NCBI GenBank assembly: GCA_016183305.1
Contig: JACPEW010000011.1
Location: 2,020-66,019 of the forward strand
Reading direction: 5' to 3'
DNA length: 64,000 nucleotides
Origin: Candidatus Daviesbacteria bacterium
GTDB lineage: Bacteria; Patescibacteriota; Microgenomatia; Daviesbacterales; UBA10151
Every line of letters starts with the position of its first letter. The first letter of the stretch is position 1. Of the stretch, positions 1,217-63,424 are shown piece by piece. Both the position numbers and the translations under genes were made by a program. The notes beneath the pieces are model-generated. The model had not been told where the DNA came from. It worked only from the letters and a program-made list of their open reading frames with translations, and ran no database searches.

Positions 1217-3355
1217 ATGGCCATTCAGAAAACTAAACGGGATTTCCCACTAGATCGGATACGTAATATCGGTATCATTGCTCATATTGATGCTGGTAAA
1301 ACTACTACTACTGAAAGAATACTCTTCTATACAGGCAGAACCTACAAAATAGGTAATATTGATGAGGGTACTACAGTGACTGACTGGATGGAACAGGAAA
1401 GAGAACGTGGTATTACTATTGTATCTGCTGCTATTACTGCTTTCTGGACAGTTAAAAAGGGTATGTATGAGGGGAATGAAATTAGAATTAATTTAATTGA
1501 TACCCCAGGCCATGTTGATTTTACTGCTGAAGTAGAAAGATCTTTAAGGGTATTAGATGGAGCAGTAATTGTTTTGGATTCTTCTTCTGGTGTGCAATCT
1601 CAAACTGAGACAGTTTGGAGACAGGCTAATAAATACAAAGTGCCTTTGATTGCTTTTTCCAACAAAATGGATGTAGTTGGAGCGGATTTTATAGCTACTA
1701 TTCAGTCTGCCAGGGACCGTTTGGGCGCTAATGCAATAGCTTACAACCTGCCGATTGGCAAAGAAAATGATTTTAAAGGAGCGGTTGATTTATTGACTGA
1801 AAAAGCTTTGATTTGGGAAGGTGATGCAACTGGAGCCAAATTTAACGAAACAGAGATTCCTGCTGATATGGTTGATCAAGTAAAGCAAGCGAGAGAGAAG
1901 TTAGTGGAGGAGATTGCAGGCAGTGATGATGCGTTAATGGAAAAATATTTGGGAGGAGAAGAAATTACCGTTACCCAGTTAAAAGAAGCTTTGAGAAGAG
2001 CTGTGATTGATAATAAAATTGTTCCGGTGATGGCTGGTTCGTCTCTGCGGAATAAAGGTGTTCAGCCAATGCTTGATGCAGTCGTAGAATATCTTCCTTC
2101 TCCGCAAGATATATATACAGTGTCTGGTGTAAACCCAAGATCAAGCGAGACAGAAGAAAGAAAAGGTGACCCCAATGCTCCTTTGGCAGCTTTAGCATTT
2201 AAAATTCAAGTAGATCCTCATGTTGGAAAATTAACTTATATCAGGGTTTATTCGGGAACCTTAAAAAGTGGTTCTTATGTTTATAACTCTACCAAACAAA
2301 TTAAAGAAAGAATTGGCAGGTTGCTTTTAATGCATGCTAATGACAGAGAAGAGATTGAGGAGGCTTTTGCTGGAGAAATTGTGGCAGCTGTTGGGCTTAA
2401 AGATACTATTACTGGAAACACTCTTTGTGATGAAACTGCTCCAATTATTTTAGAATCTATCTCTTTTCCAGATCCAGTTATTTCTTTGGCTATTGAGCCA
2501 AAAACAAAATCAGATCAGGAAAAATTAGGCTATGCCCTACAGAGATTATCCGAGGAAGACCCCACTTTTAGGGTTAAATCAGATGTAGAAACAGCCCAAA
2601 CTATTATTGCTGGGATGGGTGAGCTGCAGCTTGAGATTTTGGTTGACCGGATGAAGAGAGAATTTAAAGTTGAGGCTAATGTTGGCCAACCTCAAGTTGC
2701 CTATAAAGAAACAATTACTAAAATTGCTGAAGGTGAGGGTAAATATATCAGGCAAACCGGTGGCAGGGGTCAGTATGGCCACTGTTTGCTGAGGATCGAG
2801 CCACTTCCCCGGGGAACAGGCAGAGAGTTTATATCAGAAGTGGTTGGTGGTGCTATCCCCAGAGAGTTTATTTCGCCAATAGAAAAAGGTGTTATAGAAA
2901 AAGAAGATACAGGAATTCTGGCTGGATATCCGGTGACTGATATTAAAGTAGCAGTTTATGATGGATCTTTCCATGATGTTGATTCTTCTGAAATAGCTTT
3001 TAAGATTGCTGCTTCTTTAGGTTTGTCTGAAGCTGCTAAAAAAGCAGACATGATTTTACTGGAGCCTATAATGAAGGTAGAAGTCACCACCCCTGATGAG
3101 TTTTTAGGAGAAATTATCGGTGATTTGTCTTCAAAACGGGCTCAAATTTTATCTTCAGAAACAAAGAATAAGGCCAGAGTTATTTTAGCTTTAGTGCCTT
3201 TGGCAGAAATGCACGGTTATGCTACAGCCATAAGAAGTATGTCTCAAGGCAGAGCTACTTACTATATGGAAGCAGACCACTATGAGCCAGTCCCTTCAAA
3301 TATTACTCAAAAGATCATAGAATCCTCAGGCTTTACAGGCAGGGTAGAGCACTAA
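1217..3355 (+). CDS. fusA: elongation factor G
   Basis: 712 aa with GTPase G-motifs ([21 protein letters not shown]) and full EF-G domain order. Confidence 0.97.
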
Positions 3356-23396: not shown

Positions 23397-24512
23397 ATGG
23401 CAAAAAATAACGGTGTAACAACATTTACTTCTGAATCAGTCTGCGCCGGTCATCCGGATAAAATATGTGATGCAATATCTGATGCAATCGTTGATGCAGT
23501 TTTAACGCAAGATAGATTTGGCCATGTAGCCTGTGAGGTCTTGGCAGGATTTAATAGAGTAGTAATTTCCGGAGAAATTACGGCTAATGCTAGAGTAAAT
23601 TACGCGGATGTTGCTAGGCAACAAATAAAGAAATTGGGATATACAGATCCTAACTACAATTTTTCTGATAAATCTCCTGTCGAAGTCCATATTCATGAAC
23701 AATCCCCTGAAATTGGTGTAGGGGTTGATAAAAAAGGGGCAGGTGACCAGGGGATGATGTTTGGATATGCTTGCACAGAAACAACCTGCTTGATGCCGTT
23801 GCCTATTGCCATCGCTCATGCTCTAACCAAAAGAATGGATCAAGCCAGGGAAGAAAAAATAGTAAAATATTTAAGACCAGACGGAAAATCCCAAGTAACA
23901 ATTGAATATAGAGACGGAAAGCCTTATAAAGTAATTCAAGTTGTTATTGCTATTCCACACGAGGAATCTGTTAACTTAAATAAGGTTAAAGATGATATAT
24001 ACGAGTCAGTTGTTATACCTGTTTTAGATGTTTATGGATTTAAAATTAAGAAAGATCAGTTAATTGTCAATGGAACAGGGGTTTGGCATCATGGTGGTCC
24101 TGCTTCTGATTGTGGTTTAACAGGCAGAAAAATAGTGGTTGATGGATATGGTGGTTATGCCAGAGTTGGTGGAGGAGCATTTTCTGGAAAAGACCCAACA
24201 AAAGTAGATAGATCAGGAGCATATGCAGCAAGATTCCTGGCCAAAAATATTGTAGCTGCTAAATTAGCAGACAGGGCAGAAGTGAGACTGGCTTACTTTA
24301 TTGGAGCAAAAAAACCAACCATGCAGGATGTAGAAACCTTTGGGACCAACAAAAAATCTCATAAAGTAATACTTTCCTTCATGGAGAAGATCTTAGATAC
24401 CTCAGTGTCAGGAATATTAAAAGGTTTAGATTTACAAAGACCAATTTATTTACCAACAGCAGCTTATGGTCATTTTGGCAGAGAAGAATTCCCCTGGGAA
24501 AAAATAGTTTAG
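23397..24512 (+). CDS. metK: S-adenosylmethionine synthetase
   Basis: FTSESV..GHPDKICD, GAGDQGMMFGYA motifs. Confidence 0.95.
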   Translation: MAKNNGVTTFTSESVCAGHPDKICDAISDAIVDAVLTQDRFGHVACEVLAGFNRVVISGEITANARVNYADVARQQIKKLGYTDPNYNFSDKSPVEVHIHEQSPEIGVGVDKKGAGDQGMMFGYACTETTCLMPLPIAIAHALTKRMDQAREEKIVKYLRPDGKSQVTIEYRDGKPYKVIQVVIAIPHEESVNLNKVKDDIYESVVIPVLDVYGFKIKKDQLIVNGTGVWHHGGPASDCGLTGRKIVVDGYGGYARVGGGAFSGKDPTKVDRSGAYAARFLAKNIVAAKLADRAEVRLAYFIGAKKPTMQDVETFGTNKKSHKVILSFMEKILDTSVSGILKGLDLQRPIYLPTAAYGHFGREEFPWEKIV

Positions 24513-25297
24513 GAAAACTCCAAAATCATTGGTAAATGATCTGAGATAGGCATATCAGGTACTTGAAACTTCGTTACCTTGATATCAGAAGATACAAAAG
24601 TGTAATCAGCATACTTTTGAAAATTAGGTCCTCCATAAAAAGGGCTTAAATTACTTCTAGTTTTTCTGATATCAAATTCTCTAATTAAATTCCTCATATT
24701 TTTCCCGTAGATTTTAATGCTTTTAGTATCAGGTAATAAATTAAAATCCCCTACTAATAAAATTTTTGCCTCATTTTTTTGATCAATAATTTCTTTAACT
24801 TTCTGAGCTTCTTCTAAACGCTCAGGAGAATCTAGTTTATTGCCAGGCATAGGCCTGCCATGGAAATTAAAAATAACATATTGCTTATTGTTTATTTGAC
24901 AATTTATGAATTGTAAAGGAGTTGGTAAGTTAGAAAAATCTTCCTTTAACTTAGGAAAAGGCTGATCTTGAGAAACAATATAATTTGCTTGATAAGTAAT
25001 TTTTATTGAATTGTTAACCAAGATAGCTGATCCAGTAGTTGAATCAAAATTAATTGGATTTGCTTCATCGTCAAAGCTTTTGATTACAGGAAAATAAAAT
25101 ACTTGGAAATCAGGAAGAATTTGTTTGAACTCTGTTAATAAATTAGCCCTGATATTTCTATATTGTTTTACCTTTGATATAGTATCCTGCATTTCTTGAA
25201 AACAGAAAATATCAGTATTTAAAGATTGTTGTTTAATAAACTCAATAAGAGGTTTAAAGCATTTTCCACCCCAAGTATTAAGCGATATGAGTTTCAT
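24509..25297 (-). CDS. endonuclease/exonuclease/phosphatase (EEP, DNase I-like) family protein
   Basis: Starts MKLISLNTWGG; motifs FCFQEM, VGDFNLLPD, SDHLPMILEFS. The 641-aa ORF in the track is an artefactual read-through from the upstream recombinase/repeat. Confidence 0.75.
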   Translation of the reverse strand: MKLISLNTWGGKCFKPLIEFIKQQSLNTDIFCFQEMQDTISKVKQYRNIRANLLTEFKQILPDFQVFYFPVIKSFDDEANPINFDSTTGSAILVNNSIKITYQANYIVSQDQPFPKLKEDFSNLPTPLQFINCQINNKQYVIFNFHGRPMPGNKLDSPERLEEAQKVKEIIDQKNEAKILLVGDFNLLPDTKSIKIYGKNMRNLIREFDIRKTRSNLSPFYGGPNFQKYADYTFVSSDIKVTKFQVPDMPISDHLPMILEFS

Positions 25298-25332
25298 AAA
25301 TAGTATTCTAAGGATATGGGTGATAAAATACA

Positions 25333-25407
25333 ACGTGGTTACGGGGATTAGGTCACCGGTAGACCGCTCGAATGGGGTTCGAGAAGCAAAGAGTTCAATT
25401 CTCTTAT
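25333..25407 (+). tRNA. tRNA-Pro (anticodon GGG), CCA encoded
   Basis: Manual cloverleaf: acceptor CGGGGAT/ATCCCCG, D-stem GGTC/GACC, anticodon stem CTCGA/TCGAG with loop ATGGGGT (U33, GGG, G37), T-arm AAGAG-TTCAATT-CTCTT, discriminator A, CCA. Confidence 0.85.
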
Positions 25408-25513
25408 CCCCGACCAAGAGAGAAAAAGAGTCCGAAAAGGCGGAGGCGCTCCGTGCGTCGCCGCCCGCACGGAGCGCCGAGAAGCCCTTTTTATATTCTG
25501 CCGAGAGCTGCCG
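25402..25513 (+). repeat. att-like repeat copy 1 (tRNA 3' end CGACCA plus 105-bp segment with 13-bp GC hairpin)
   Basis: Near-identical inverted copy at 26959-27062 (1 mismatch); diverged direct copy at 28624-28729. Contains GGCGCTCCGTGCG-loop-CGCACGGAGCGCC. Confidence 0.8.
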
Positions 25514-26911
25514 ATTAGATAAAAAGAAGTTCGAGCCGACACGTTTTGCGAAGATTGCTAAATCTTCGCAATTATTTTTTGCGCGCGCGATTTTTTGCGC
25601 CTGTAAGGCGCAATTTACGAATTCTCTCATAGGTTCGAGCCAACTCGAACCAGTCTTTTCAACTTTGGCACTCTCTTCCTGTAATTTCAGTTTTGTTTCA
25701 AACAACTCGTTTTTCTTTTGTTTGTAGGTATCGGGGTCGACAACACTATCGAGAAAACTGTCTAAAAGTGTATTTTGTTTTCGGTCTACATCTTGAATTT
25801 CAGTTTTGAGATTTTGGATTGTTGTTTCTGATGATTGTTTTTCGGCTAACTCATCTCGCTCTAAAAATTTCAGCCAATGGTCAGCCCAGCTTTGAGGCAA
25901 TACCACATCAGAAACGACTTTTCTTATTTGATCTCCCATCTCAAAACCGGTGATTGGCGCTTGAGAACACGGACCAAGTTTCTTGGTGCAACGATAATAA
26001 ACGTAAGTACATTTACGATTTGTTGTTTTGTAAAATTTTGTATGCTGTTCGGCGGTGATCGCTGCCCCACATTCACTGCATCTAGCTAATCCCAAAAACG
26101 GAAAGCGGTATGATTTCTTGAAATGCTTAGTTCGCCTTTCCATTTCCTCTTGTACTTTCTGGAATAATTCTTTGGGAATAAAACACTTGTGATTTCCGTC
26201 ATGATACTCGTCGTTGTAAAACATAATACCGATATAAAACTTGTTTGAAAGTATCTGGCGGATTTCGTTGATATGCAGTGGTCTTCCGTTTTTGCGCTTC
26301 AGATCAAACTTGTAAACATATTTCGCAATATCCGTAAAAGTATGATTTCCTTCAGTAAACATTTCAAAAACTTTCTTTATTGCTTTTGACTTTTCTGGAT
26401 CGACGTCTATGCCTCTGGTTTTAGGATTGTTCACATACCCATAAGGGGCTTTTGCCGGTCAAACTCCGTTTCGTAGTTTTTGGCGCAAACCTCGTTTTAC
26501 GTTTTCGGAAAGATTGTCCACATAATATTTCGATTGGCCGAAGGCAATTGAAAGCATAAATTTACCTTGTGGTGTGTTTTCAAACCAAGAAGTTGGAAAT
26601 TTCAGGTCAAGTAGTTTGCCGGTATCGAGAAGATAAATAATTTTTCCGCCATCCATTGAGTTTCTGGCTAAACGATCGGGGTGCCATGCAACAATCCCGT
26701 TTGCGTGTCCCTTCTCGATTTTCTTCAGGACTTCGGCAAACTGCTCTCTTCCTGGCATTTTGGCGGTTTTTGCTTCCTCGACAAATTCGATAATCTCCAA
26801 ATGTTCTCGTTTGGCAAATTCTTTTAACTCGGCTATCTGGGCTTCGATAGATAAAATTTGCTTGTCTGCTTCGTCCCTCGATTTTCTGCAATACGCGATA
26901 TATTTTGTCAT
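25514..26911 (-). pseudogene. large serine recombinase interrupted by an in-frame TGA (26456-26458); 3' end runs into repeat copy 1 without a stop
   Basis: N-terminal catalytic domain (YCRKS..., DRLAR, VDNLSENVKRGL), in-frame TGA, then continuation PAKAPYGYVNN..., recombinase domain and Cys-rich zinc ribbon (CSECG...YYRCTKK), coiled-coil. TGA is used as a stop in rpsJ and rplD of this genome. Confidence 0.7.
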
Positions 26912-26958
26912 TTTGTTTTCTTCCTAAAATTTTTGCGTTTTATTTCCTTCTTTTTTTT

Positions 26959-27131
26959 CCGGCAGCTCTCGGCAGAATATAAAAAGGGCTTCTCGGCGCT
27001 CCGTGCGGGCGGCGACGCACGGAGCGCCTCCACCTTTTCGGACTCTTTTTCTCTCTTGGTCGAGATTTACGAAAAAGTTAGAACAGAATTTCGCAATTGT
27101 TAGCTCGGCCGCCTGCGGCGGCCTCGCTTCC
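26959..27131 (-). repeat. att-like repeat copy 2 (inverted; A-part plus B-part)
   Basis: 26959-27062 is the reverse complement of 25402-25513 including the cgaccaag junction. 27058-27131 is the reverse complement of 28557-28630 (1 mismatch). Confidence 0.8.
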
Positions 27132-27144
27132 TAACGTGTCAGCT

Positions 27145-27295
27145 CGAAAAGGATTTTGAGGCACAAAATCCTCAAAAAAAACGCAAAAATTTTAAAGAAC
27201 TTTTTTAAACTTCAAATGGCCGCCCCAGTTGAACTCAAACCCTTTCGGACTTGTCTGGGACGGCCATTAAAAAGCCGAAAGGGAAGTTTGAGTTC
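27145..27295 (-). ncRNA. candidate structured small RNA (promoter, nested stems/pseudoknot, terminator)
   Basis: Minus-strand TTGTAT-17-TATAGT promoter (27325-27330 / 27302-27307). Transcript predicted with stems AACUCAAAC/GUUUGAGUU, CUUUCGG/CCGAAAG and UGGCCGUCCCAG pairing with CUGGGGCGGCCA. Terminator GGAUUUUG-loop-CAAAAUCC+UUUUCG. Homologous to the region at 28740-28880. Confidence 0.4.
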
Positions 27296-27358
27296 AATTA
27301 CACTATATAAAATTTTCAAAATAAATACAACCATTGACTACTCAAAATTCCGGAAAAA

Positions 27359-27781
27359 ATGTATAATGAAATCAGAACTGTGGAGAAAAATTACTTGAAC
27401 AAGGAAATTTTAATTACTACTGATCCTCAGAAAATTCACTTCATTCTTCGTGCCGCCTACTTAGTAGCAAATCTAATAATAAATCAGGTTTTACGCAGTT
27501 TTACCTTTGCGCTTTCTCTCTTTGGCAAAGTGGAACCGAATATATACATTAATTTCATCATTGGGTTAGTTATAAGTGAGATAAGCTACAGAGTAGCCGT
27601 TAAAATTTACCAAACTAAATTTAACTTACTAAAAAACAAATTAGACAACGAACCTCCAGAAGGTGTTAAAATCATTCGGGGGTATTATGTGTTTCTTATT
27701 AATGCCTCTTTAGCAACGATTTTAAATTTTATTTTTTTCTTAGGCTATTTTATTTTCGTAAAATTAAATAGGGGAATATAA
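27359..27781 (+). CDS. hypothetical small membrane protein (2-3 predicted TM helices); start uncertain
   Basis: ORF in AT-rich cargo. Hydrophobic stretches LRAAYLVANLIINQVL, FIIGLVISEISY, ATILNFIFFLGYFIFV. Stop lies 3 nt before the next gene. Confidence 0.5.
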   Translation: MYNEIRTVEKNYLNKEILITTDPQKIHFILRAAYLVANLIINQVLRSFTFALSLFGKVEPNIYINFIIGLVISEISYRVAVKIYQTKFNLLKNKLDNEPPEGVKIIRGYYVFLINASLATILNFIFFLGYFIFVKLNRGI

Positions 27782-27783
27782 AT

Positions 27784-28509
27784 ATGAAATTAGTTTTTAA
27801 TGTAAATAGTATATTCAGTTATTTAGGCAAAAACAAAAAGGGAAACGCCACGGAACCAAATATCATTAAAGGTTTAGAACAAGTCGTCGGTAGTCTTGAA
27901 GAAATTAAGGATAATAATTTACGAAAAGAGCTAAAAAAGTATATTGAATTTTTTCACCCGGATGTACATGCACATGTATTGCTAGAATTTAACTTCCAAA
28001 ATAAGACATATTACTATTCTCATTTGATTTGGGGTGAGGATTTCTATATTAGCGAGTCTTTCATAGACTGTATTTCTATAAGCGATCAAACTTTTTTGAT
28101 TACAAATTCGTATATGGGTAGACTATTTTTGGAAAACCCTAGAAAAATTGCGGATTATTCATACGATGTACAAGTGTATGTCGAAGCAAAGGAAAACAGT
28201 AATACTATTCCACAAACAGTAGAGACTAAGTTGCAACTGTTTGGAATATATGATCTCGAAAAAGAGAGAAAAAGCGTTGAGGGTAATCTGAATAATTCGG
28301 GTAGTGATCCTTTATCAAAAGTGTCTTCGGCCATCTTTGGTAAAGTTACTAGCGAAACTGATCTTTTGCCTAAAGAGCCTACAATTGTGTTTTATTGGGA
28401 TAAAAACCAGAATAAGAAACTGTTAACTTACCAATTTACATCGAAGAACTTGGAGTATTTTGGGCAAGCCAATATTTTAGGCAATATAATAAAATTGTTT
28501 TCTCAGTAA
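27784..28509 (+). CDS. hypothetical protein (241 aa), no recognisable domain
   Basis: AGGGG SD 9 nt upstream; translationally coupled to the preceding ORF. AT-rich relative to flanks. Confidence 0.6.
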   Translation: MKLVFNVNSIFSYLGKNKKGNATEPNIIKGLEQVVGSLEEIKDNNLRKELKKYIEFFHPDVHAHVLLEFNFQNKTYYYSHLIWGEDFYISESFIDCISISDQTFLITNSYMGRLFLENPRKIADYSYDVQVYVEAKENSNTIPQTVETKLQLFGIYDLEKERKSVEGNLNNSGSDPLSKVSSAIFGKVTSETDLLPKEPTIVFYWDKNQNKKLLTYQFTSKNLEYFGQANILGNIIKLFSQ

Positions 28510-28556
28510 ATAAGCGATTGCTCCGCAATCGCAAAATCGCGCGCGCAAAAAATAAC

Positions 28557-28729
28557 GGAAGCGAGGCCGCCGCAGGCGGCCGAGCTAACAATTGCGAAAT
28601 TCGGTTCTAACTTTTTCGTAAATCTCGACCTGGAGAGACTTTTGGAATTTTGAGCCTGGATTGCTCTTTGCGGGAGGGGGCGCGCAGAGCTCTGAAAAGC
28701 CCTTTTTGTACGAGACTGCAAGTTGCCGG
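28557..28729 (+). repeat. att-like repeat copy 3 (B-part plus diverged A-part; putative attR)
   Basis: 28557-28630 is near-identical to the reverse complement of 27058-27131. From cgacc onward it is a diverged homolog of 25407-25513. Confidence 0.75.
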
Positions 28730-28739
28730 AGTGAAAAAG

Positions 28740-28880
28740 AGCAAAAAACGGAAGGTCGCGAAAATTTTTTAAAGAACTTTTTTTCAATAGTTTTAAACTT
28801 AAAAGGCGCAACCGGGGAACTCAACTTCAAATCGCTTCTAATTGTCCGGTTGCGCCATTTAAAAGAGCAATCCCATCCAA
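28740..28880 (-). terminator. terminator/3'UTR structure of LemA-TPM operon; homolog of sRNA-like module at 27145-27295
   Basis: 11-bp perfect stem GGCGCAACCGG/CCGGTTGCGCC followed on the minus strand by UUUUAAGUUU. Shares ttaaagaactttttt...aaactt...gaactcaa motifs with 27180-27240. Confidence 0.45.
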
Positions 28881-31100: not shown

Positions 31101-33539
31101 ATGGCTCAAAATAACTCCAGTAATAATGAAGCCAAAAAAGCTGCAATCTCTGCAGCAATGGCTCAAATCCAAAAACAATATGGTACAGGTTCTATTATGC
31201 GTCTTGGTGAACGCGTTGAAAAATTTGCTACAGATACTATTCCAACTGGTTCTATTGCCTTAGATTTAGCCTTGGGTGTTGGCGGTCTCCCCAAAGGCAG
31301 GATTATTGAGATTTATGGACCTGAAGCTGGCGGAAAATGCGTTACAACAGATACTGTAGTATTTACAGAATATGGTATGGTACCAATTGGTTTTTTAGGC
31401 GATCTCAATCAGAAGGGGTTTCAACCAAAGGAAATAAAGGTATATTCGGAAGGTGGGTTTGCCTATACAAGCCACTTTTATAATAGTGGAGTACAAAAAA
31501 CTATTAAAATAAAGACTTCCTATGGTTTTGAATTAGAAGGTACACCAAATCACAGAGTTCGTGTTTTGGATAATCAGGGAGAGTATATTTGGCGGCGGCT
31601 TGATCAATTAAAGATTGATGACAGTATTGCTATCCAAAGAGGGCAATATTGTTTTGGTTCAGGAGCTGATTTATCAAACTTTGGATATATAAAAAACAAA
31701 AACAACAGTCGTGGTAAAGATTTTAATCCCCCGTCTGTTCTTACATCTGATTTAGCAAGGCTAATGGGTTATCTAGTTGGTGATGGTACTTGTACGTCAG
31801 GGGGTTTTAATAAAAATGACATCCAGATTACTATTGCAGACGATGAAATAGCTGAAGATTTTTCAAATCTTTGTCTGCGTATTTTTGGAGAAACTCCGAA
31901 AATAACTTTAGATAAGCGTACTAAAAATACACAAAACTTCAGAATTCATAATGCAAAGGCGCGAGTTTTTCTAGCATATGCTGGTTTAGATTATGTTAGC
32001 GCTGAAGGAAAAGAGATTCCTTATTCAGTAATGCAAGGCTCGCAGACAATAGTAGCTAACTTTTTGTCAGCATTGTTCGAGACTGATGGTTGTTTTAGTA
32101 CTAATACTATTGAGTATTATACAAAATCTATAGAACTTATTAAGCAGCTGCAGCTTGTTTTGTTGAATTTCGGTATAGTTTCGAGAATTAAACCTAGACA
32201 AATTAAGAATTATCCAGGTAATACTTATTATTATTTATATATAGATGGAATTAATGATCAAAAAATCTTCTATAAGGAGATAGGATTTATATCCAAGAGA
32301 AAGAATGAAAAACTTCTTTTTTATATCCAACGGGAGCGTCAATATCAAAGCAACAGGGACACAGTTCCTTTTATAAATCATAAGATTGATGAATTGATGA
32401 AAGATTATAGAATTTCTCTAGGCAGTAGTACCAGACAGCATTGGGATGCGGTATATGATTATCGATCTGCTACTCCTGGTCATTCTTCCTTGACTTACCC
32501 CAGATTAAATAAAATTTTAAACATTTTCCAACCGGTAGAAAAATTATCCGTATACCAGGAGTTAAAAGAAATATTTTTGCGGAATATTTTTTGGGATAAG
32601 ATAGTAGAAATGCAACCTTCCAAGTCATTGGTAGTTGATTTTACAGTGCCGGAAACATTATCTTTTTTTGGAAGTGGTTTTATTAATCATAATACTACAG
32701 TGGCCCTTCATGTTATAGCTGAAGCTCAAAAAAAAGGCGGGGTAGCAGCTTTTATTGATGCAGAACATGCTTTAGACCCGCAAAGAGCTCAAAAGATTGG
32801 AGTAAATTTAGATGATTTGCTTATTTCTCAACCAGACACAGGTGAGCAGGGTTTGGAAATTGCAGAAAGTTTAATCCGGTCTGGTGGGATTGATGTGTTA
32901 GTCATAGATTCTGTAGCAGCATTAGTTCCTAGGTCAGAACTGGAAGGAGAGATGGGAGATTCTTCCATGGGTGTGCAAGCCCGTTTGATGTCTCAAGCCT
33001 TAAGGAAGTTAACTGGAGCAGTTTCTAATACCAATACCATTGTTATTTTCACAAATCAGTTAAGACAAAAAATTGGAGTGATGTTTGGTAATCCGGAAAC
33101 AACTACCGGAGGATTAGCCCTGAAATTTTATTCATCAATAAGATTGGATGTCAGAAAAATTGAGAATATAAAGGATGGGGATTTGGTGGTGGGTTCAAGG
33201 CACAGAGTTAAAGTAGTAAAAAATAAAGTCGCTCCCCCATTCAGGATTGCTGAATTTGATATGGATGAAAATGGTATTTCACATGAAGGAGAGCTTTTAG
33301 ATGTAGGAATTGAGCTAGGAATCTTGACTAAATCAGGTGCTTTTATTAAATGGAAGGAAAAGTTATTAGGCCAGGGCAGAGCTGCATCTGCTGCTTACTT
33401 AAAAGAGAATAAAAAAGAGGCTGAAAAATTAGAAAAAGAGATTAGAGATGCTTGGACTAAGCAAAAAGAAGGCAAAGAAAAAATCGTAGTTGGTCAAGAA
33501 GAAGAAACTTCAGCAGGTGCTTTAGAAGAAGCGGTTTAA
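31101..33539 (+). CDS. recA: recombinase RecA containing a 452-aa intein with LAGLIDADG homing-endonuclease domain
   Basis: N-extein ends GPEAGGK. Intein starts at Cys (CVTTDTVVF) and ends HN before TTVALHV. Spliced product restores the P-loop [23 protein letters not shown]. Two LAGLIDADG blocks ([22 protein letters not shown]). Confidence 0.9.
31338..32693 (+). mobile_element. RecA intein (P-loop insertion) with LAGLIDADG endonuclease
   Basis: Cys1 ... His-Asn / Thr+1 boundaries; Hint blocks plus double LAGLIDADG. Confidence 0.85.
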
Positions 33540-34201
33540 TGTCTAAAATAACCTCAGTAGAACCTCAAAAGAAAAACCCGAAAAGATTCAATATATTTTT
33601 AGATGGAGAATTTGCTTTTGGAGCAGATGAAGATTTAGTGGTTAATAGCAGGTTGGTAGTAGGTAAGGTGGTTCCGTCAGAAGAGCTCCAAAAAATATTA
33701 TTTGAGGTAGAGGTGGGGAAGTTGATGGAAAGAATGTACCGGTGGTTTGCCTTAAGGCAGCATTCAGAAAAGGAAGTCAGGGAATACTTTAGAATTAAGA
33801 ATTTAGAATTAAGAATAAAGGAAAAAGAGCAGATGAGTCAGTTAGTTATTGATGCTACCGTAGAGACCTTAAAGAGGAAAGGGATGGTTAATGATTTAGG
33901 ATTTACTAAAGCTTGGGTAGAAGCCAGAAGAAAAACAAAGCAAAAAGGAATTAAGGCAATAAAACAAGAGCTTTTCCAAAAAGGAATTGATAAGGAGATT
34001 ATTGAAGAAGTTATGGGTTATGGGTTAGGAGTTATAAGTGAGGAAGATTTAGCAAAACAGGCATTGGAGAAAAAGATGAAATTCTTGAAACATTTGAATA
34101 CTTTGGATCTGAAGAAAAAAGCGTATGAGTTTTTACTTAGAAAAGGTTTTGAATATGAGGTGGTTAAAAAAACAATTGAAAGTTTGACAAAAAAAGTGTA
34201 A
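33539..34201 (+). CDS. recX: regulatory protein RecX
   Basis: Position immediately after recA; three-helical-repeat-like sequence. Confidence 0.7.
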   Translation: MSKITSVEPQKKNPKRFNIFLDGEFAFGADEDLVVNSRLVVGKVVPSEELQKILFEVEVGKLMERMYRWFALRQHSEKEVREYFRIKNLELRIKEKEQMSQLVIDATVETLKRKGMVNDLGFTKAWVEARRKTKQKGIKAIKQELFQKGIDKEIIEEVMGYGLGVISEEDLAKQALEKKMKFLKHLNTLDLKKKAYEFLLRKGFEYEVVKKTIESLTKKV

Positions 34202-44924: not shown

Positions 44925-45938
44925 ATGAATAAGATATTAGTTATTTTAGGTCCGACTTCAACAGGTAAAACTGATTTAGCTCTTAAATTGGCTCAAAAAC
45001 TGGGAGGAGAGCTGGTATCAGTTGATTCAAGGCAGGTTTATAAGAATTTAGATATTGGGACTGGTAAATTACCAGTTCAATTGAAAATTGAGAATTGTAA
45101 ATTGAAAATTAAAAAGGGTGATGGATGGTGGAAAATTAATGGAGGAAAAATATGGATGTACGATGTAGTTGAAGCAAAAAAGCAGTACACAGTTTTTAAT
45201 TATGTTAAAGATGCTTCTAAGCTCATAGATGATATTTTACAAAGAGGAAAGTTGCCAATTTTAGCAGGAGGGACTGGATTTTATCTTAAAGCTTTGTTGG
45301 AGGGTTTGCCTAATTTGGCAGTTCCTCAAGATCTAAAACTAAGGGAAAAATTAGAAAAATTATCTTTAGAGCAGTTGCAAAAAAGACTTCAAGAATTATC
45401 TCTGAAAAAATGGGAAAGCATGAATCATTCCGATAGACAAAATTCAAGAAGGTTGGTTAGGGCTATAGAGTTAGTAATTTTGTCATTGCGAGGAGTGAAA
45501 CGACGAAGCAATCTTCCCATTCCGTTGAAGATCGCCACGCTAATCGCCCGCGATGACAATGTACTTAAGATTGGGCTGACTGCACCTAGGGAAATCCTAT
45601 ATCAAAGGATAGATGAAAGGGTGATTAGCAGAATAAATCAAGGGATGATTGAAGAGGCAGATAAATTACATAAAGAAGGTTTAAGTTTTGAGAGAATGAA
45701 ACAATTAGGTCTAGAGTATGGAGTTCTAGCAGATTACCTTATGGGTCAAATTGCTAGTAAAGACCAACTGATAAAAATTCTCCAGGATAAAATCCATGGT
45801 TTTGCCCGCAGGCAAATTACCTGGTTTAAGAAAGAAAAAGAGATGAAGTGGTTTGATATTGCCGGTTCACATTATCTTCACAAAGTAGAAGAATTAGTAA
45901 GCGAATGGTATGATAGTGGGTATGACACGGAAGATTGA
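44925..45938 (+). CDS. miaA: tRNA dimethylallyltransferase with two in-frame insertions
   Basis: P-loop GPTSTGKT, DSRQVYK, PILAGGTGFY, RRLVRAIEL motifs. Insertions at LKIENCKLKIKKGDGWW (AT-rich motif shared with the fusA upstream region) and at ILSLRGVKRRSNLPIPLKIATLIARDD (palindromic repeat). Confidence 0.85.
   Translation: MNKILVILGPTSTGKTDLALKLAQKLGGELVSVDSRQVYKNLDIGTGKLPVQLKIENCKLKIKKGDGWWKINGGKIWMYDVVEAKKQYTVFNYVKDASKLIDDILQRGKLPILAGGTGFYLKALLEGLPNLAVPQDLKLREKLEKLSLEQLQKRLQELSLKKWESMNHSDRQNSRRLVRAIELVILSLRGVKRRSNLPIPLKIATLIARDDNVLKIGLTAPREILYQRIDERVISRINQGMIEEADKLHKEGLSFERMKQLGLEYGVLADYLMGQIASKDQLIKILQDKIHGFARRQITWFKKEKEMKWFDIAGSHYLHKVEELVSEWYDSGYDTED
45476..45562. repeat. GC-rich palindromic MITE/REP-like element copy 1 (in-frame inside miaA)
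   Basis: Termini TGTCATTGCGAG ... GCGATGACAA (imperfect inverted repeat), internal hairpin ATCTTC..GAAGAT. Second copy at 62216-62296. Confidence 0.6.
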
Positions 45939-60877: not shown

Positions 60878-62206
60878 TCAAGGGCGGGTTATCATTAGAA
60901 AGCTCGTGTAATTATCTTTAGCATCCTGTAGGTTATCCTGAGTGATTTGTAAATTGTAAATTTCTGCCAAAACTTTACTGCCCATTACCGCAATATTTTT
61001 TCCTAATTTATTTTCTGCTAAGTATTTTGCTACTACTGCATGATCGATTAGTTCTTTAGTTCCTGATGTCTGTTTTAGGTGAGGATATTTTTTAGCAAGT
61101 GTACTTTTGCATTGAGCCAGAACTTGAGGGTGAGTCATGATAGTGGTTATTTCTGAAAACTTAATATCTTTTCTGATCATTAAAGCATGCGAAATTTTAA
61201 TAGCAAATTCTTTAACAATCTTAAACTTATAACTGGCTATAGCCTCAATGCTTTCTCCAACAATTCCGCCTACGGAATTATGAATAGCAAATTGTCCGCA
61301 GTCAATACCACCAGCATGTAATGCTTTTAAAACATTTTCAGAAGTATATAAATATTTGATTTTATACTTAGTAATACCTTCTTTCCTTAAATAATATTGT
61401 ATGGCTTCCTCATTAAAACTGCCTATTCCTCCTTGTATGCCAAAAGTTATAAATTTAGGGTTCTTCTGTTTTGGTAATAATTTGTTATAAACCCTGTCAT
61501 AAATTTCTCCTAATTTAATCCTCATTTGTTTGGTATAAGGATTAAAATGCTGTAAGTCTGTAAAAAGTTGCCAGGTATCATTGCATGTTTGTTCTTTAAC
61601 TTCCAATAATTTTTTAATACCTAATGAATCGATTGGGGTAGATTGAAAGCCATAGGCATTAAGCAGTCTTCCGATAAAGTGCGTTAAACCCTGGGAAGAA
61701 GCAGCTAATTTATCATGTGTTTTGGCAGTCATTTCTATTACCTGTACTTTTTTACTTTTAAAATATTCTTTCCAGAATTTAAAAGTTTCACTACTGCTTA
61801 AAAATTTATCAATAATTAGGGGTAGGTTATCAAAACCATTCTTGCTGCTATCTGGACCAAACATTGGATGAGTTAGTATTGCTTGGGCCTTTAAACCTTT
61901 TAAATATTTTCTAAAAACTTTAGCTGGATGAATCTTGACTGATAAAACATCTACAAGAACATGATGGTTTTGAAAATACTTCTTGTGGGTTGCTATGACT
62001 TTTTCAAAATTGCTGATAGGTACTGCATAAAAAATAACTTCACCCTCGTAAATGTCAGCAATATTATTTGTAATATAGGTATTTTTGGTTAACCCGTTAC
62101 TTGTTATTGGACCTTTGTCGTAGAGGGTGATAATAAAATCATCCTTAATAAGGCGGTATAAAGTCTGGCCAAATCTACCAAATCCCACAATGCTAATTTT
62201 TTTCAT
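60878..62206 (-). CDS. bifunctional prephenate dehydrogenase / prephenate dehydratase (TyrA-PheA fusion)
   Basis: N-terminal NAD-binding IVGFGRFGQ (TyrA). C-terminal PDT domain (ITFGIQGGIGSFNEEA..., THPQVLAQC). Start taken at MKKISIV because the longer ORF begins inside the upstream repeat. Confidence 0.75.
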   Translation of the reverse strand: MKKISIVGFGRFGQTLYRLIKDDFIITLYDKGPITSNGLTKNTYITNNIADIYEGEVIFYAVPISNFEKVIATHKKYFQNHHVLVDVLSVKIHPAKVFRKYLKGLKAQAILTHPMFGPDSSKNGFDNLPLIIDKFLSSSETFKFWKEYFKSKKVQVIEMTAKTHDKLAASSQGLTHFIGRLLNAYGFQSTPIDSLGIKKLLEVKEQTCNDTWQLFTDLQHFNPYTKQMRIKLGEIYDRVYNKLLPKQKNPKFITFGIQGGIGSFNEEAIQYYLRKEGITKYKIKYLYTSENVLKALHAGGIDCGQFAIHNSVGGIVGESIEAIASYKFKIVKEFAIKISHALMIRKDIKFSEITTIMTHPQVLAQCKSTLAKKYPHLKQTSGTKELIDHAVVAKYLAENKLGKNIAVMGSKVLAEIYNLQITQDNLQDAKDNYTSFLMITRP

Positions 62207-62215
62207 GAACCCCTT

Positions 62216-62296
62216 TCTGTCATTGCGAGCGAACATAGTGAGCGTGGCAATCTTCCGAGGTTGGAAGGTTCCTCGCTAATCACTCGGAATGACACA
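62216..62296. repeat. GC-rich palindromic MITE/REP-like element copy 2 (intergenic)
   Basis: TGTCATTGCGAGCGAA...CTCGGAATGACAC termini and internal hairpin CTTCC..GGAAG. Fills the aminotransferase/tyrA-pheA spacer. Confidence 0.6.
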
Positions 62297-63424
62297 TTAA
62301 AAATAATTCTCAATTTGGTCAATGTTAGTGCAAATACTAATCCTGATAGATTGTTTGCCACTTTTACCAAAAGCAGAACCTGGGGTAACGAGAATTTGTT
62401 TTTTTTCTAATAAATAATTGCAAAACTGCTCTGCGTCTTTAAAGTCTGCGGGGATTTTAGCCCAAATGTATAAACTTCCTTTAGGTAAAGTGAAAGTTAG
62501 TCCTAATTGTTTCAGATAATTTGCAATTATATCTCTTCTTTGTTGGTAACTTTTTATCATCTGTTGGTGCCATTTTTTATCAGGATGGTTTAAGGCAAAA
62601 GCCCCTAATTTTTGCAGGGGAGTAGATAAACCAGAATCCATTTGCGATTTTACTTTAGCTAACGCTGTAATTACTTTGCTATTACCAACAATCCAGCCCA
62701 TTCTAAAACCAGCAAAGGAAAAAGTCTTGGAAAAAGATCCTAGTTCAATTGCAATATTTTTAGCACCTGGAATTTGTAAAATAGAAGGAGCAATATAATT
62801 ATCAAAAGTTATTTCTGAATAAGCATTATCATAAGCAATAATAAGGTTGTGTTTTTTAGCAAACTTCACTAATTTATCCAATTGTTCAAGAGAAATTACT
62901 TGACCAGTTGGATTAGAGGGAAAATTAACCCACATGAATTTTGTCTTTTTAGAAATTTTTACATCTATTAATTTTTCTGGATTATAGTAAACAACTCTTC
63001 CTCCCACCATTAAAGCTGTATCAGTATAAGCAGGGTATCCTGGATCTGGAACTAAAACTTCATCGTCTGGGTCTAAAAGAGCCAAAGGTAAGTGGCTCAC
63101 CCCGTCTTTTGCTCCAAGTAAAGGGAAAACTTCAGATTCTTTTAAATTAACCTTAAATCTTTTTTTGTACCAATTAATTAACGCTTGGGAAAATTCGTTA
63201 TTTGCGCCAAAACCAGGATATAAATGAGATTTACCATCAGTAAGAAACTCATCAAATTTTTTAAGGTAAAAGAAGCTGGGTTTTACATCAGGATTACCTG
63301 CTCCAAAATCTAAAACCTTTTTTTTGGATTTTGCTTCTACTGCTTTAACTTTTTTCTGTAATCTGGAAAAAATATATTCAGAGAATACATTTAACCTTTT
63401 AGCGCTTTTTATCATAGTTTCCAA
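62297..63424 (-). CDS. class I/II pyridoxal-phosphate-dependent aminotransferase
   Basis: GNPD motif region and SFSKTFSFAGFRMGW (PLP-lysine region). Confidence 0.8.
   Translation of the reverse strand: METMIKSAKRLNVFSEYIFSRLQKKVKAVEAKSKKKVLDFGAGNPDVKPSFFYLKKFDEFLTDGKSHLYPGFGANNEFSQALINWYKKRFKVNLKESEVFPLLGAKDGVSHLPLALLDPDDEVLVPDPGYPAYTDTALMVGGRVVYYNPEKLIDVKISKKTKFMWVNFPSNPTGQVISLEQLDKLVKFAKKHNLIIAYDNAYSEITFDNYIAPSILQIPGAKNIAIELGSFSKTFSFAGFRMGWIVGNSKVITALAKVKSQMDSGLSTPLQKLGAFALNHPDKKWHQQMIKSYQQRRDIIANYLKQLGLTFTLPKGSLYIWAKIPADFKDAEQFCNYLLEKKQILVTPGSAFGKSGKQSIRISICTNIDQIENYF

Follow-up and report, generated by a model that had tools for sequence, protein, structure and literature searches.

In-frame and intergenic copies of a probable Ssn-type hairpin pair in Candidatus Daviesbacteria, one of them translated within the tRNA-modification protein MiaA

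Introduction

Palindromic repeats that are inserted in frame into essential genes and translated were reportedly described for Rickettsia by Ogata et al. in 2000 (RPE-1 and others). RPE-1 has a length of about 100-150 nt, occurs in Rickettsia only, and belongs to a different sequence family from the element described here. This element is found in a 64,000-nt stretch of DNA (the window) from Candidatus Daviesbacteria, a member of the Microgenomates within the candidate phyla radiation (CPR). One GC-rich copy lies in frame within miaA, the gene of tRNA dimethylallyltransferase, and a second copy lies upstream of a tyrA/pheA gene. Most probably, these copies are a non-autonomous, anciently acquired hairpin pair of the Ssn family, and the copy in miaA is translated as a disordered hinge of the protein.

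Two described systems come closest to this element. The CGTC-tagged repetitive extragenic palindromes (REPs) consist of a CGTC or TGTC tag (CCTC is allowed), a stem starting with AT, and a short unpaired tail with the consensus CCA, and they occur as dispersed, multicopy, mostly head-to-head dimers in five phyla (Di Nocera, De Gregorio and Rocco 2013, PMC3733652). They include dRS3 from Neisseria as well as RPE-4 and RPE-6 from R. conorii, frequently occur in frame within genes, in which a dimer encodes 20-30 aa, and were described as "apparently lacking a dedicated transposase" (PMC3733652). Of the REPs located between genes of the same direction, most lie next to a stop codon and abut the ribosome-binding site of the following gene (PMC3733652).

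The second system is centered on Ssn, a 94-aa single-domain GIY-YIG nuclease (cd10448), which binds the NTS hairpin CGTCATTCCCGCGMAVGCGGGAATCYRG in single-stranded DNA only and cuts a few nucleotides upstream of it (Chenal et al. 2025, PMC11893778). Motifs related to NTS (Ssn-related motifs, SRMs) are found near 71% of ssn homologues, in a motif-gene-motif layout resembling an insertion sequence, and NTS motifs lie inside genes only rarely (2%) (PMC11893778).

Anatomy of the two copies

The two copies are located at 45481-45558 (copy 1, an imperfect palindrome of 78 nt, plus strand) and 62218-62294 (copy 2, a palindrome of 77 nt, plus strand). Both fall within the intervals of two GC-rich elements reported in a first-pass annotation of the window. 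The 12-mer TGTCATTGCGAG is found as an exact match in the window at 45481 and 62218 only, and its inverted counterpart follows 66 nt downstream in both copies with one or two mismatches. In a global alignment, copies 1 and 2 have 57 identical positions (about 70% identity) and exact 12-nt ends in common; the alignment score is 26, compared to -11.3 +/- 4.5 with a maximum of 4 in 1000 shuffles. Their GC content is 0.53 and 0.51, respectively, compared to 0.36 for the window. Long hairpins with energies of -27 to -35 kcal/mol (z = -3.6 to -4.3) are predicted for both strands of both copies, and none of 200 shuffles was as stable.

Each copy is composed of two hairpin motifs that are inverted relative to each other and face outward, with the general structure (T/C)GTC - ATYGC - variable part, often a mini-hairpin - GCRAT - C. 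The left motif of copy 1 (45481-45513, plus strand) reads TGTC-ATTGC-GAGGAGTGAAACGACGAA-GCAAT-C and is matched by an nhmmer profile of the single motif (monomer profile) at 45482-45513 with E = 1.1e-6. The right motif (45530-45558, minus strand) reads TGTC-ATCGC-GGGCGATTAGCGTG-GCGAT-C on the minus strand and has the compensated stem variant ATCGC/GCGAT. The 16-nt central spacer TTCCCATTCCGTTGAA (45514-45529), as read from the sequence, takes the position at which full-length members of the family carry a GIY-YIG gene, as seen in a comparison with loci L181, L110 and L208 (L and P numbers denote database loci and proteins, respectively). In copy 2, the motifs are located at 62218-62252 (plus strand) and 62267-62294 (minus strand), with a profile match at 62219-62252 (E = 1.4e-4).

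TGTC and GACA are found at both ends of both copies, all four motifs in the window follow the scheme GTC-AT..-..-C, and the tail is CTT(C) rather than CCA. The terminal inverted repeats described in the first-pass annotation are the outer parts of two hairpin motifs in opposite orientation. No match above the Rfam gathering threshold was found in the window or in four loci of the family, and a single match around copy 1 with E = 6.6 is attributable to chance.

Copy 1 as a hinge of MiaA

The miaA gene harboring copy 1 (44925-45938, plus strand, from the list of open reading frames, ORFs) encodes a protein of 337 aa with the Pfam domain IPPT (E = 1.7e-51), which is 100% identical to an NCBI protein from Candidatus Daviesbacteria and matches MiaA chains in the PDB at the sequence level with E = 1.6e-39. 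An AlphaFold model of this protein has a mean pLDDT confidence of 82, and its best structural matches are the MiaA structures 3exa, 2zm5 and 3foz. Copy 1 provides 26 in-frame codons (LSLRGVKRRSNLPIPLKIATLIARDD, residues 186-211) and does not interrupt the ORF, as had been noted before.

The pLDDT drops below 50 at residues 50-57 and 190-203, both of which lie between confident secondary structure elements; the latter segment is bounded by a helix (174-188) and a strand (213-219). MiaA from Bacillus halodurans and from Staphylococcus epidermidis lacks 17 residues that follow DIGTGKLP in the protein of the window, and cannot be aligned with it between RRLVRAIEL, the final helix of the insertion domain, and LKIGL, a strand of the core. 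Copy 1 therefore encodes one of the two hinges by which the core is connected with the tRNA-clamping insertion domain.

In more distant orthologues, from which the region was extracted by anchoring with tblastn, the ancestral-type hinge is AT-rich, has 22 aa, and follows the pattern [VIL]SMNPY...[FY][DN][IV]. Only VI...NV is left of it in the MiaA of the window and, therefore, most of the hinge of about 22 aa has been replaced. The element does lie in the hinge, but the simple addition implied by the earlier term insertion does not hold, and the net gain is about 8 aa.

The orthologue set comprised 120 MiaA proteins from Daviesbacteria that are 58-68% identical, and the hinge was analyzed in 109 of them. 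The flanks of the hinge are nearly invariant among the 120 proteins, and hinge length varies from 15 to 52 aa. Conserved native sequence is found neither at this segment nor at the second segment that had been regarded as inserted (see below); both are hypervariable among the orthologues and coincide with the two low-confidence loops of the model. According to heuristic peptide signatures, about 60 of the 109 hinges resemble translated small repeats. The signature of the right arm of the copy-1 family (..ARND, ..PRND, ..ARDD) ends 23 hinges, and that of the left arm, SLRGAKRRSNL, is found in seven. Further hinges suggest other hairpin families, represented by the peptides SPRRS..HLRGG / FTSEESLRATVRGG, IPAYAGMT, and H.GDPS..QDD.

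In terms of DNA sequence, full elements of the copy-1 family are present in the hinges of L031, L022, L216 and L217; a different GC-rich hairpin is found in those of L011, L012 and L001, and the NTS-like sequence GATTCCCGCCTGCGCGGGAATGAC in that of L010. The different hairpin, CACCTCG(A/G)AGGAG..CC(T/G)(T/C)CGAGGTG, is located at L001 10529-10591, L011 9616-9678 and L012 1266-1340; it folds with z-scores of -2.7 to -4.4. Its family, which gives the peptides SPRRS..HLRGG and FTSEESLRATVRGG, is present in about 17 of the 109 hinges.

Searches with blastn-short using hinge DNA against all loci were too insensitive and missed the pair in the window; terminus patterns and the monomer profile were used instead. 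In 432 kb of Daviesbacteria-like DNA, the profile gave significant matches in the miaA hinge for the window, L216, L217, L031, L022 and L215, and weak matches for L004, L005 and L007. Outside the hinge, only copy 2 and a site in the recX-rny spacer of L216 were detected. This latter family copy (L216 692-776) is located on a Daviesbacteria contig with P0004. Many orthologues still carry the family at the miaA hinge, either complete or degraded. It is rare elsewhere in these genomes, and the reading frame has probably preserved it in miaA.

Proteins adjoining P0001 in the order of the MiaA tree have hinges of the ..ARDD type. In the DNA that encodes them (L214, L215), the left unit has been lost, but the right motif is retained, including the rare ATCGC variant of copy 1 and the strings CGCTAATCGC or GAAGATCGCCACGCT, and is followed by the 3' flank known from the window. 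Since L214 and L215 share the right unit, the ATCGC variant and the 3' flank with the window, the insertion of copy 1 appears, on sequence grounds, to be older than the split of species with about 63% identity in MiaA. Within its subclade, the copy in miaA is an old one that has been passed on vertically, and it does not result from a recent hop. The left motif of copy 1 is identical in 34 of 34 nt from 45482 to the left arm of a copy from a metagenome-assembled genome (MAG) of the Desulfobacterales (L184, 83-164), which implies either strong sequence constraint or recent exchange.

A widespread family associated with GIY-YIG nuclease genes

A scan of one genome per bacterial species with the pattern GTCATTGCGAG N8-30 GCAATC N25-55 RATGAC yielded at least 120 loci with 126 listed elements, for all of which the inverted, tag-outward pairing was built into the search pattern. 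The matches listed come from genomes with 33-72% GC and belong to Alpha-, Beta-, Gamma- and Deltaproteobacteria, Bacteroidota, Cyanobacteria, Chloroflexi, Planctomycetota, Nitrospirota, Firmicutes, Omnitrophota, Melainabacteria, Rickettsiales and CPR. Among them are Bradyrhizobium, many sphingomonads, Pedobacter, Mucilaginibacter, Nostoc, Microcoleus and Sporomusa, the Rickettsiales Tisiphia and Finniella, and the CPR groups Buchanan- and Berkelbacteria. Several copies per 8-kb locus are present in L085, L098, L111, L140 and L193.

The consensus of the family is GTCATTGCGAG..GAAGCAATCCAG..CTGGATTGCTTC..CTCGCAATGAC, with the layout (C)GTC-ATTGC-GAG[variable]CGAA-GCAAT-CCAG ... CTGG-ATTGC-...-GCAAT-GAC(G); this motif type is also labelled ATTGCGAG. 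Among the 126 listed members, CGTC is the commonest form of the tag, and GCAAT-CCAG is found in most high-GC members. The inner mini-hairpins often differ between the two arms of one element, which argues for each arm being a unit of its own. The closing stem consists of 5 bp, ATYGC/GCRAT, and encloses 12-30 nt. Within each motif this stem is supported by compensatory changes in the listed members: monomers with ATCGC have GCGAT in 8 of 11 cases and GCAAT in 2 of 11, and both monomers with ATCCC have GGGAT. As far as could be found, the very widespread family GTCATTGCGAG...GCAATC has not been described in the literature, and a literature search for REP-like repeats in CPR returned mentions of CRISPR only.

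At most 19 of the 126 listed elements lie in long open frames. This count is inflated by high-GC genomes, in which open frames arise by chance, and only two low-GC cases have been regarded as real. One is an in-frame copy in the GMP synthase GuaA of a gammaproteobacterial MAG (VIARPRSGAAISKNSEIASEGAPRND, L127 4466-4543), and the other lies in UvrA of another gammaproteobacterial MAG (VIASKAKQSHSTGSANNGIATSPLAPRND, L135 2835-2921). Both agree with the host-gene classes of CGTC-tagged REPs in PMC3733652. In the consensus, the left arm is free of stop codons in every frame and the right arm in two of its three, which explains why in-frame insertions often survive.

An ORF for a 95-aa GIY-YIG protein is located between the two motifs in L181, L110 and L189, the latter with the GTCATTCTGAG variant. 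The domain corresponds to Pfam PF01541 (E = 3e-15 to 6e-18); the family of these nested proteins is huge, with 70-80% identity across phyla, and no NCBIfam model matching it was found. Longer gene calls of the protein extend into the translated arms. Three further GIY-YIG genes were picked by protein alone: in Dehalococcoidia (L208-210) the gene is perfectly nested between two units, in Desulfobacteraceae (L203-207) only the right unit is kept, and in Calothrix (L201) solo elements are found on the flanks. The L181 protein is 44% identical (E = 7e-17) to the SsnA homologue of a single N. gonorrhoeae locus (L211), in which four canonical NTS motifs surround the gene. Motifs flanking a single-domain GIY-YIG gene homologous to ssnA (E < 1e-10) are therefore a property of the family and not of the window. 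In addition, a plasmid of Planktothrix agardhii (NZ_LR882964.1, 18450-19513; L212) carries an ssn-like GIY-YIG gene with hairpins of the GTCATTCTGAG type. This gene lies in the context of a defence island between an MmeI-type restriction-modification gene and drmA of a DISARM system.

Relation to described repeat systems

With the CGTC-tagged REPs, the element shares the terminal (C/T)GTC tag, present at both ends of both copies, the AT-start stem, the two inverted, tag-outward units, the distribution over many phyla, the placement next to stop codons, and in-frame occurrence, with tRNA-modification and DNA-repair genes among the host genes of the REPs. A CCA-type tail is part of the family consensus GCAATCCAG; in the window it is replaced by CTT. 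The CGTC-3 units are alike in the outer ATTGC/GCAAT and CCA, and the CGTC-3 peptide VIAGLDPAIH back-translates to GTCATTGCCGGG..CCCGGCAATCCA. In contrast, CGTC-tagged REPs have a perfect stem of 8-9 bp with a loop of 4-5 nt, whereas the present motifs have a 5-bp stem around 12-30 nt with an optional mini-hairpin. The peptides SLRG, ARND and RSEA of the family of the window element are absent from the supplement of PMC3733652, in which no dedicated enzyme was found and CPR were not covered.

The relation to the Ssn system is based on the gene of about 95 aa for a single-domain GIY-YIG protein homologous to gonococcal SsnA, on the motif-gene-motif layout, and on the many solo motifs scattered in genomes. 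Furthermore, all four units of the window, like those of the family as a whole, have the GTC preceding the stem and the C directly following it that are critical for cutting and binding in PMC11893778. GTAG-tagged REPs and REPINs with RAYT also consist of short, often inversely paired, non-autonomous hairpins, and they are associated with a single-copy gene that has the repeats on both sides. They differ in the tag (GTAG versus GTC) and in the enzyme, which is a tyrosine (HUH) transposase of the IS200/IS605 type instead of a GIY-YIG nuclease.

With Rickettsia palindromic elements, the element has in common a palindrome that lies in frame in an essential gene and is translated in a permissive surface segment. 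In the window, this palindrome is found in a conserved gene, is absent from orthologues, and occupies a permissive segment. RPE-1 itself is set apart by description only, as it is longer, belongs to another family and is restricted to Rickettsia. The resemblance to the Rickettsia elements that had been pointed out in the first-pass annotation proved to be more than an analogy, since the tag, the AT-start stem and the head-to-head dimer define the superfamily that includes RPE-4 and RPE-6 (PMC3733652). The label of a miniature inverted-repeat transposable element given there could not be upheld, as no target-site duplication is seen and the associated gene encodes a GIY-YIG nuclease of the Ssn type and not a transposase.

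Origin of the element and alternative explanations

Judging by motif sequence, both copies are best placed as gene-less members of the superfamily of CGTC-tagged REPs and SRMs. They would be derived from a hairpin-flanked cassette of a GIY-YIG (Ssn-type) nuclease and lack its gene. In an ancestor of the present subclade of Daviesbacteria, copy 1 would have entered the hinge-coding DNA of miaA, replacing most of the hinge, and would persist because it provides 26 stop-free codons in a segment that needs length and not sequence. The product would be a disordered basic linker. By analogy to PMC11893778, a cognate Ssn would bind each motif in single-stranded DNA only and introduce a nick a few nucleotides upstream of GTC. 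As the motifs face outward, the nicks would be expected just outside each end and on opposite strands. Such nicks could drive spread or recombination from copy to copy.

Several observations weigh against this origin. Cleavage of this motif family by Ssn is putative. Neither the window nor some 430 kb of Daviesbacteria-like loci revealed an Ssn-like ORF, in a sample amounting to less than half a genome's worth per species. The published SRM pattern HGTCWYN(0-2)YYVSBRHN(0-5)WNVSBRGN(0-2)RNCYNB has four matches in L211 and none in the window, L181, L110, L189, L208, L212 and L213, and the motif orientation is reversed in comparison to Neisseria, where the GTC heads face the gene. Because of the pattern mismatch, the reversed orientation and the absence of its peptides from the supplement of 2013, the element has been classified as a variant of the superfamily and not as a described member. 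Direct-repeat inspection revealed no target-site duplication beside copy 1, copy 2 or the 126 listed relatives. The copy number is low, with two copies in 64 kb and about one per 200 kb outside miaA in related loci, and nothing in the window or in these loci points to current proliferation. Finally, simple neutral persistence does not explain a near-consensus left unit in an old insertion, for which renewal by recombination is the main rival.

This point leads to recurrent site-directed insertion, or repeated overwriting of the miaA hinge by recombination with dispersed elements, which would not exclude the origin outlined above and is a possibility to be taken seriously despite being rather unlikely. 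It would account for the near-consensus left motif of the window next to orthologues that have lost theirs, for the different, non-homologous inner mini-hairpins in the hinge copies of the window, L031, L022 and L216 (GAGTGAAAC, CCCCGAAGGGG, GGTCGCCGTGGCGACC, GGCCCTTCGGGCC), and for unrelated repeats at the same hinge elsewhere, such as CACCTCGAAGG hairpins, the NTS-like sequence of L010, IPAYAGMT types and heptamer arrays. However, the right motif, the ATCGC variant, the frame and the 3' flank are common to the window, L214 and L215, and the ARDD hinges are adjacent in tree order, which fits inheritance; furthermore, neither a nuclease gene nor donor copies were seen nearby. The neighbor-joining tree of MiaA is poorly resolved and, therefore, the number of insertion events is uncertain. 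A function for the host at the RNA or DNA level, of the kind suggested for classical REPs, with copy 2 acting as intercistronic mRNA stabilizer, attenuator or modulator of translation and copy 1 causing a ribosome pause at the domain boundary, would be in line with the stable hairpins on both strands and with the position of copy 2, which starts 2 nt after a stop codon and abuts a ribosome-binding site, like most REPs between genes of the same direction (PMC3733652). Such a function is improbable, however: compensatory changes maintain the stem within the motif and not the long two-arm hairpin, sequence as well as structure is conserved across genomes with 33-72% GC, which points to recognition by a protein, an Rfam family match is lacking, and orthologous hinges work with decayed or absent hairpins.

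It is still harder to reconcile with the data that the peptide itself has been exapted, with the basic RGVKRRSN beside the tRNA-clamping insertion domain improving tRNA binding, so that selection at the protein level would maintain it. The hinge does lie next to this domain, and the family copies in miaA of the window, L022, L031, L216 and L217 are always in the same frame (SLRGxKRR...ARND/ARDD), but this constraint is explained more simply by a TGA stop codon in one frame of the right end together with the conserved D/N before [IV]LKIGL. Moreover, close orthologues differ very widely in the sequence, charge and length of their hinges, and the confidence of the structure model is low across the segment. 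That the segments are conserved parts of native MiaA, or that they arose as an artefact in the assembly of a MAG, can be practically dismissed: the protein is known as a single database member from a single contig, yet the segments are not conserved in the 120 orthologues, equivalent in-frame elements are present in independent assemblies from other samples (L022, L031, L216, L217), the frame is intact, and the order of miaA and the following AI-2E transporter gene is conserved synteny.

Surroundings of copy 2

In a minus-strand operon, copy 2 fills the spacer between the stop codon of an aminotransferase gene and the ribosome-binding site of tyrA/pheA, as supported by the ORF list and Pfam; its position upstream of tyrA/pheA had been recognized in the first-pass annotation. 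The class I/II aminotransferase gene (62297-63424, minus strand; Pfam Aminotran_1_2, E = 2.6e-64) lies upstream and ends with TAA at 62297-62299, 2 nt from the beginning of copy 2. The other end of the copy abuts the GGGG ribosome-binding site of tyrA/pheA (60878-62206, minus strand; ATG at 62206), which encodes a fused prephenate dehydrogenase/prephenate dehydratase (Pfam PDH_N and PDT). This location right after a stop codon and against the ribosome-binding site of the next gene resembles that of classical REPs. A longer listed ORF of tyrA/pheA starts with MFARND at 62236 inside copy 2, and this extension is most likely an artefact. In databases, the peptides FARND and SLRGAKRRSNL represent translated members of this repeat family, and the same artefact is seen in the extended GIY-YIG proteins P0122, P0147 and P0183.

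Heptanucleotide arrays and other repeats

The second in-frame segment of miaA, located in loop 1 of the protein, is a tandem array of the heptanucleotide AATTGAA with 5.3 copies (45079-45115, plus strand; TRF), which encodes QLKIENCKLKIKK (residues 52-64, approximately). The same unit forms an array of 8.6 copies at 1151-1209 (TRF) in the AT-rich leader (1099-1209) of the ORF at 1217-3355, which we take to be fusA (EF-G) from its N-terminal motif AHIDAGKTT; related units on the opposite strand are found at 1110-1138. The relation to the fusA leader that had been proposed for this segment holds with regard to its origin from a repeat with the same unit, but the repeat is a tandem array and not palindromic. 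With up to one mismatch, AATTGTAAATTG has eight matches in the window compared to 1.8 expected, and none of 100 shuffles reached eight; these matches are clustered and non-independent. That two small repeats reside within one essential tRNA-modification gene was, accordingly, correct in kind.

Many orthologues have a short loop 1 of 20 codons (KLPGKEVKAKKSEGFWELDG). Arrays with at least three heptamer copies are present in loop 1 of 14 of 36 loci, compared to 0.0 expected from shuffles, and the units vary by locus (GGAAGAT, CAAATCT, AAATATC, AAATTCG, GGAARYT and others). A conserved native beta-hairpin, as which GRWKVEDGKWKKG in loop 1 had been considered, was ruled out by its encoding in a (GGAAGAT)n DNA array and by other units in orthologues. 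Heptamer arrays also occur in the MiaA hinge of 4 of the 36 loci. Loop 1 of L012 and L026 carries a GC-rich palindrome instead of an array, GACCTACGAGGTC..GACCTCGTAGGTC (L012 864-935, L026 2463-2534), which is translated as DSTYEVRR..PRRS.

The (AAGTCAA)n array in the MiaA hinge of L032 (10541-10606) is 96-100% identical to L080 4223-4254, L072 257-288 and L060 8480-8512, and identical heptamer units therefore recur across genomes. The latter three are CPR-like loci from outside Daviesbacteria, and their arrays lie at unrelated places. Local slippage is one possibility for the origin of the arrays, yet the same units recur in these unrelated loci. Heptanucleotide arrays known as STRR are said to have been described for heterocystous cyanobacteria by Mazel et al. 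in 1990. By description, these are likewise dispersed 7-nt tandem units with several unit sequences per lineage; they differ in the units themselves, whereas the arrays reported here lie repeatedly in frame, in two loops of one gene, and in CPR.

Further arrays with a period of 7 nt are present in the ORF at 33539-34201 (AGAATTA x 4.3 at 33791-33820 and GTTATGG x 3.7 at 34010-34035) and in the pheA part of tyrA/pheA (TTGTAAA x 2.3 at 60947-60962). Four of the seven arrays in the window with at least 3.5 copies have this period. Independent of these repeats, the region 24500-28830 resembles a mobile element that has integrated next to a tRNA gene (25342-25413, plus strand). It contains split serine-recombinase-like ORFs at 26459-26911 and 24509-26434 (both minus strand) and long inverted repeats at 25411-25563/26910-27062 (153 nt, 84%) and 27050-27131/28557-28638 (82 nt, 96%).

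Implications

The element belongs to a known class, of which it represents a new variant in a new host group, the CPR, and it is unexpected that small repeats should cluster in two loops encoded by a single essential gene. A widespread family of hairpin repeats is connected to the recently discovered Ssn single-strand nucleases as candidate enzymes. The published SRM pattern is too narrow, as it misses this family and its reversed, transposon-like geometry. The translation of a repeat within an essential protein, in the style of Rickettsia, is extended to CPR, and in streamlined genomes such repeats would persist mainly where a reading frame protects them. In practical terms, spurious starts, N-terminal extensions and hypervariable linkers can mislead annotation and alignment.

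A more speculative idea, to which we give little credence, is that the MiaA loops are long-lived repeat sinks in which hairpin pairs and heptamer arrays are repeatedly renewed by, or exchanged with, genomic or incoming copies, possibly stimulated by Ssn nicks. If so, an essential gene would carry a maintained nuclease target, hypervariable linkers would arise as a by-product, and the target could control miaA alleles acquired by transformation, in analogy to NTS in Neisseria.

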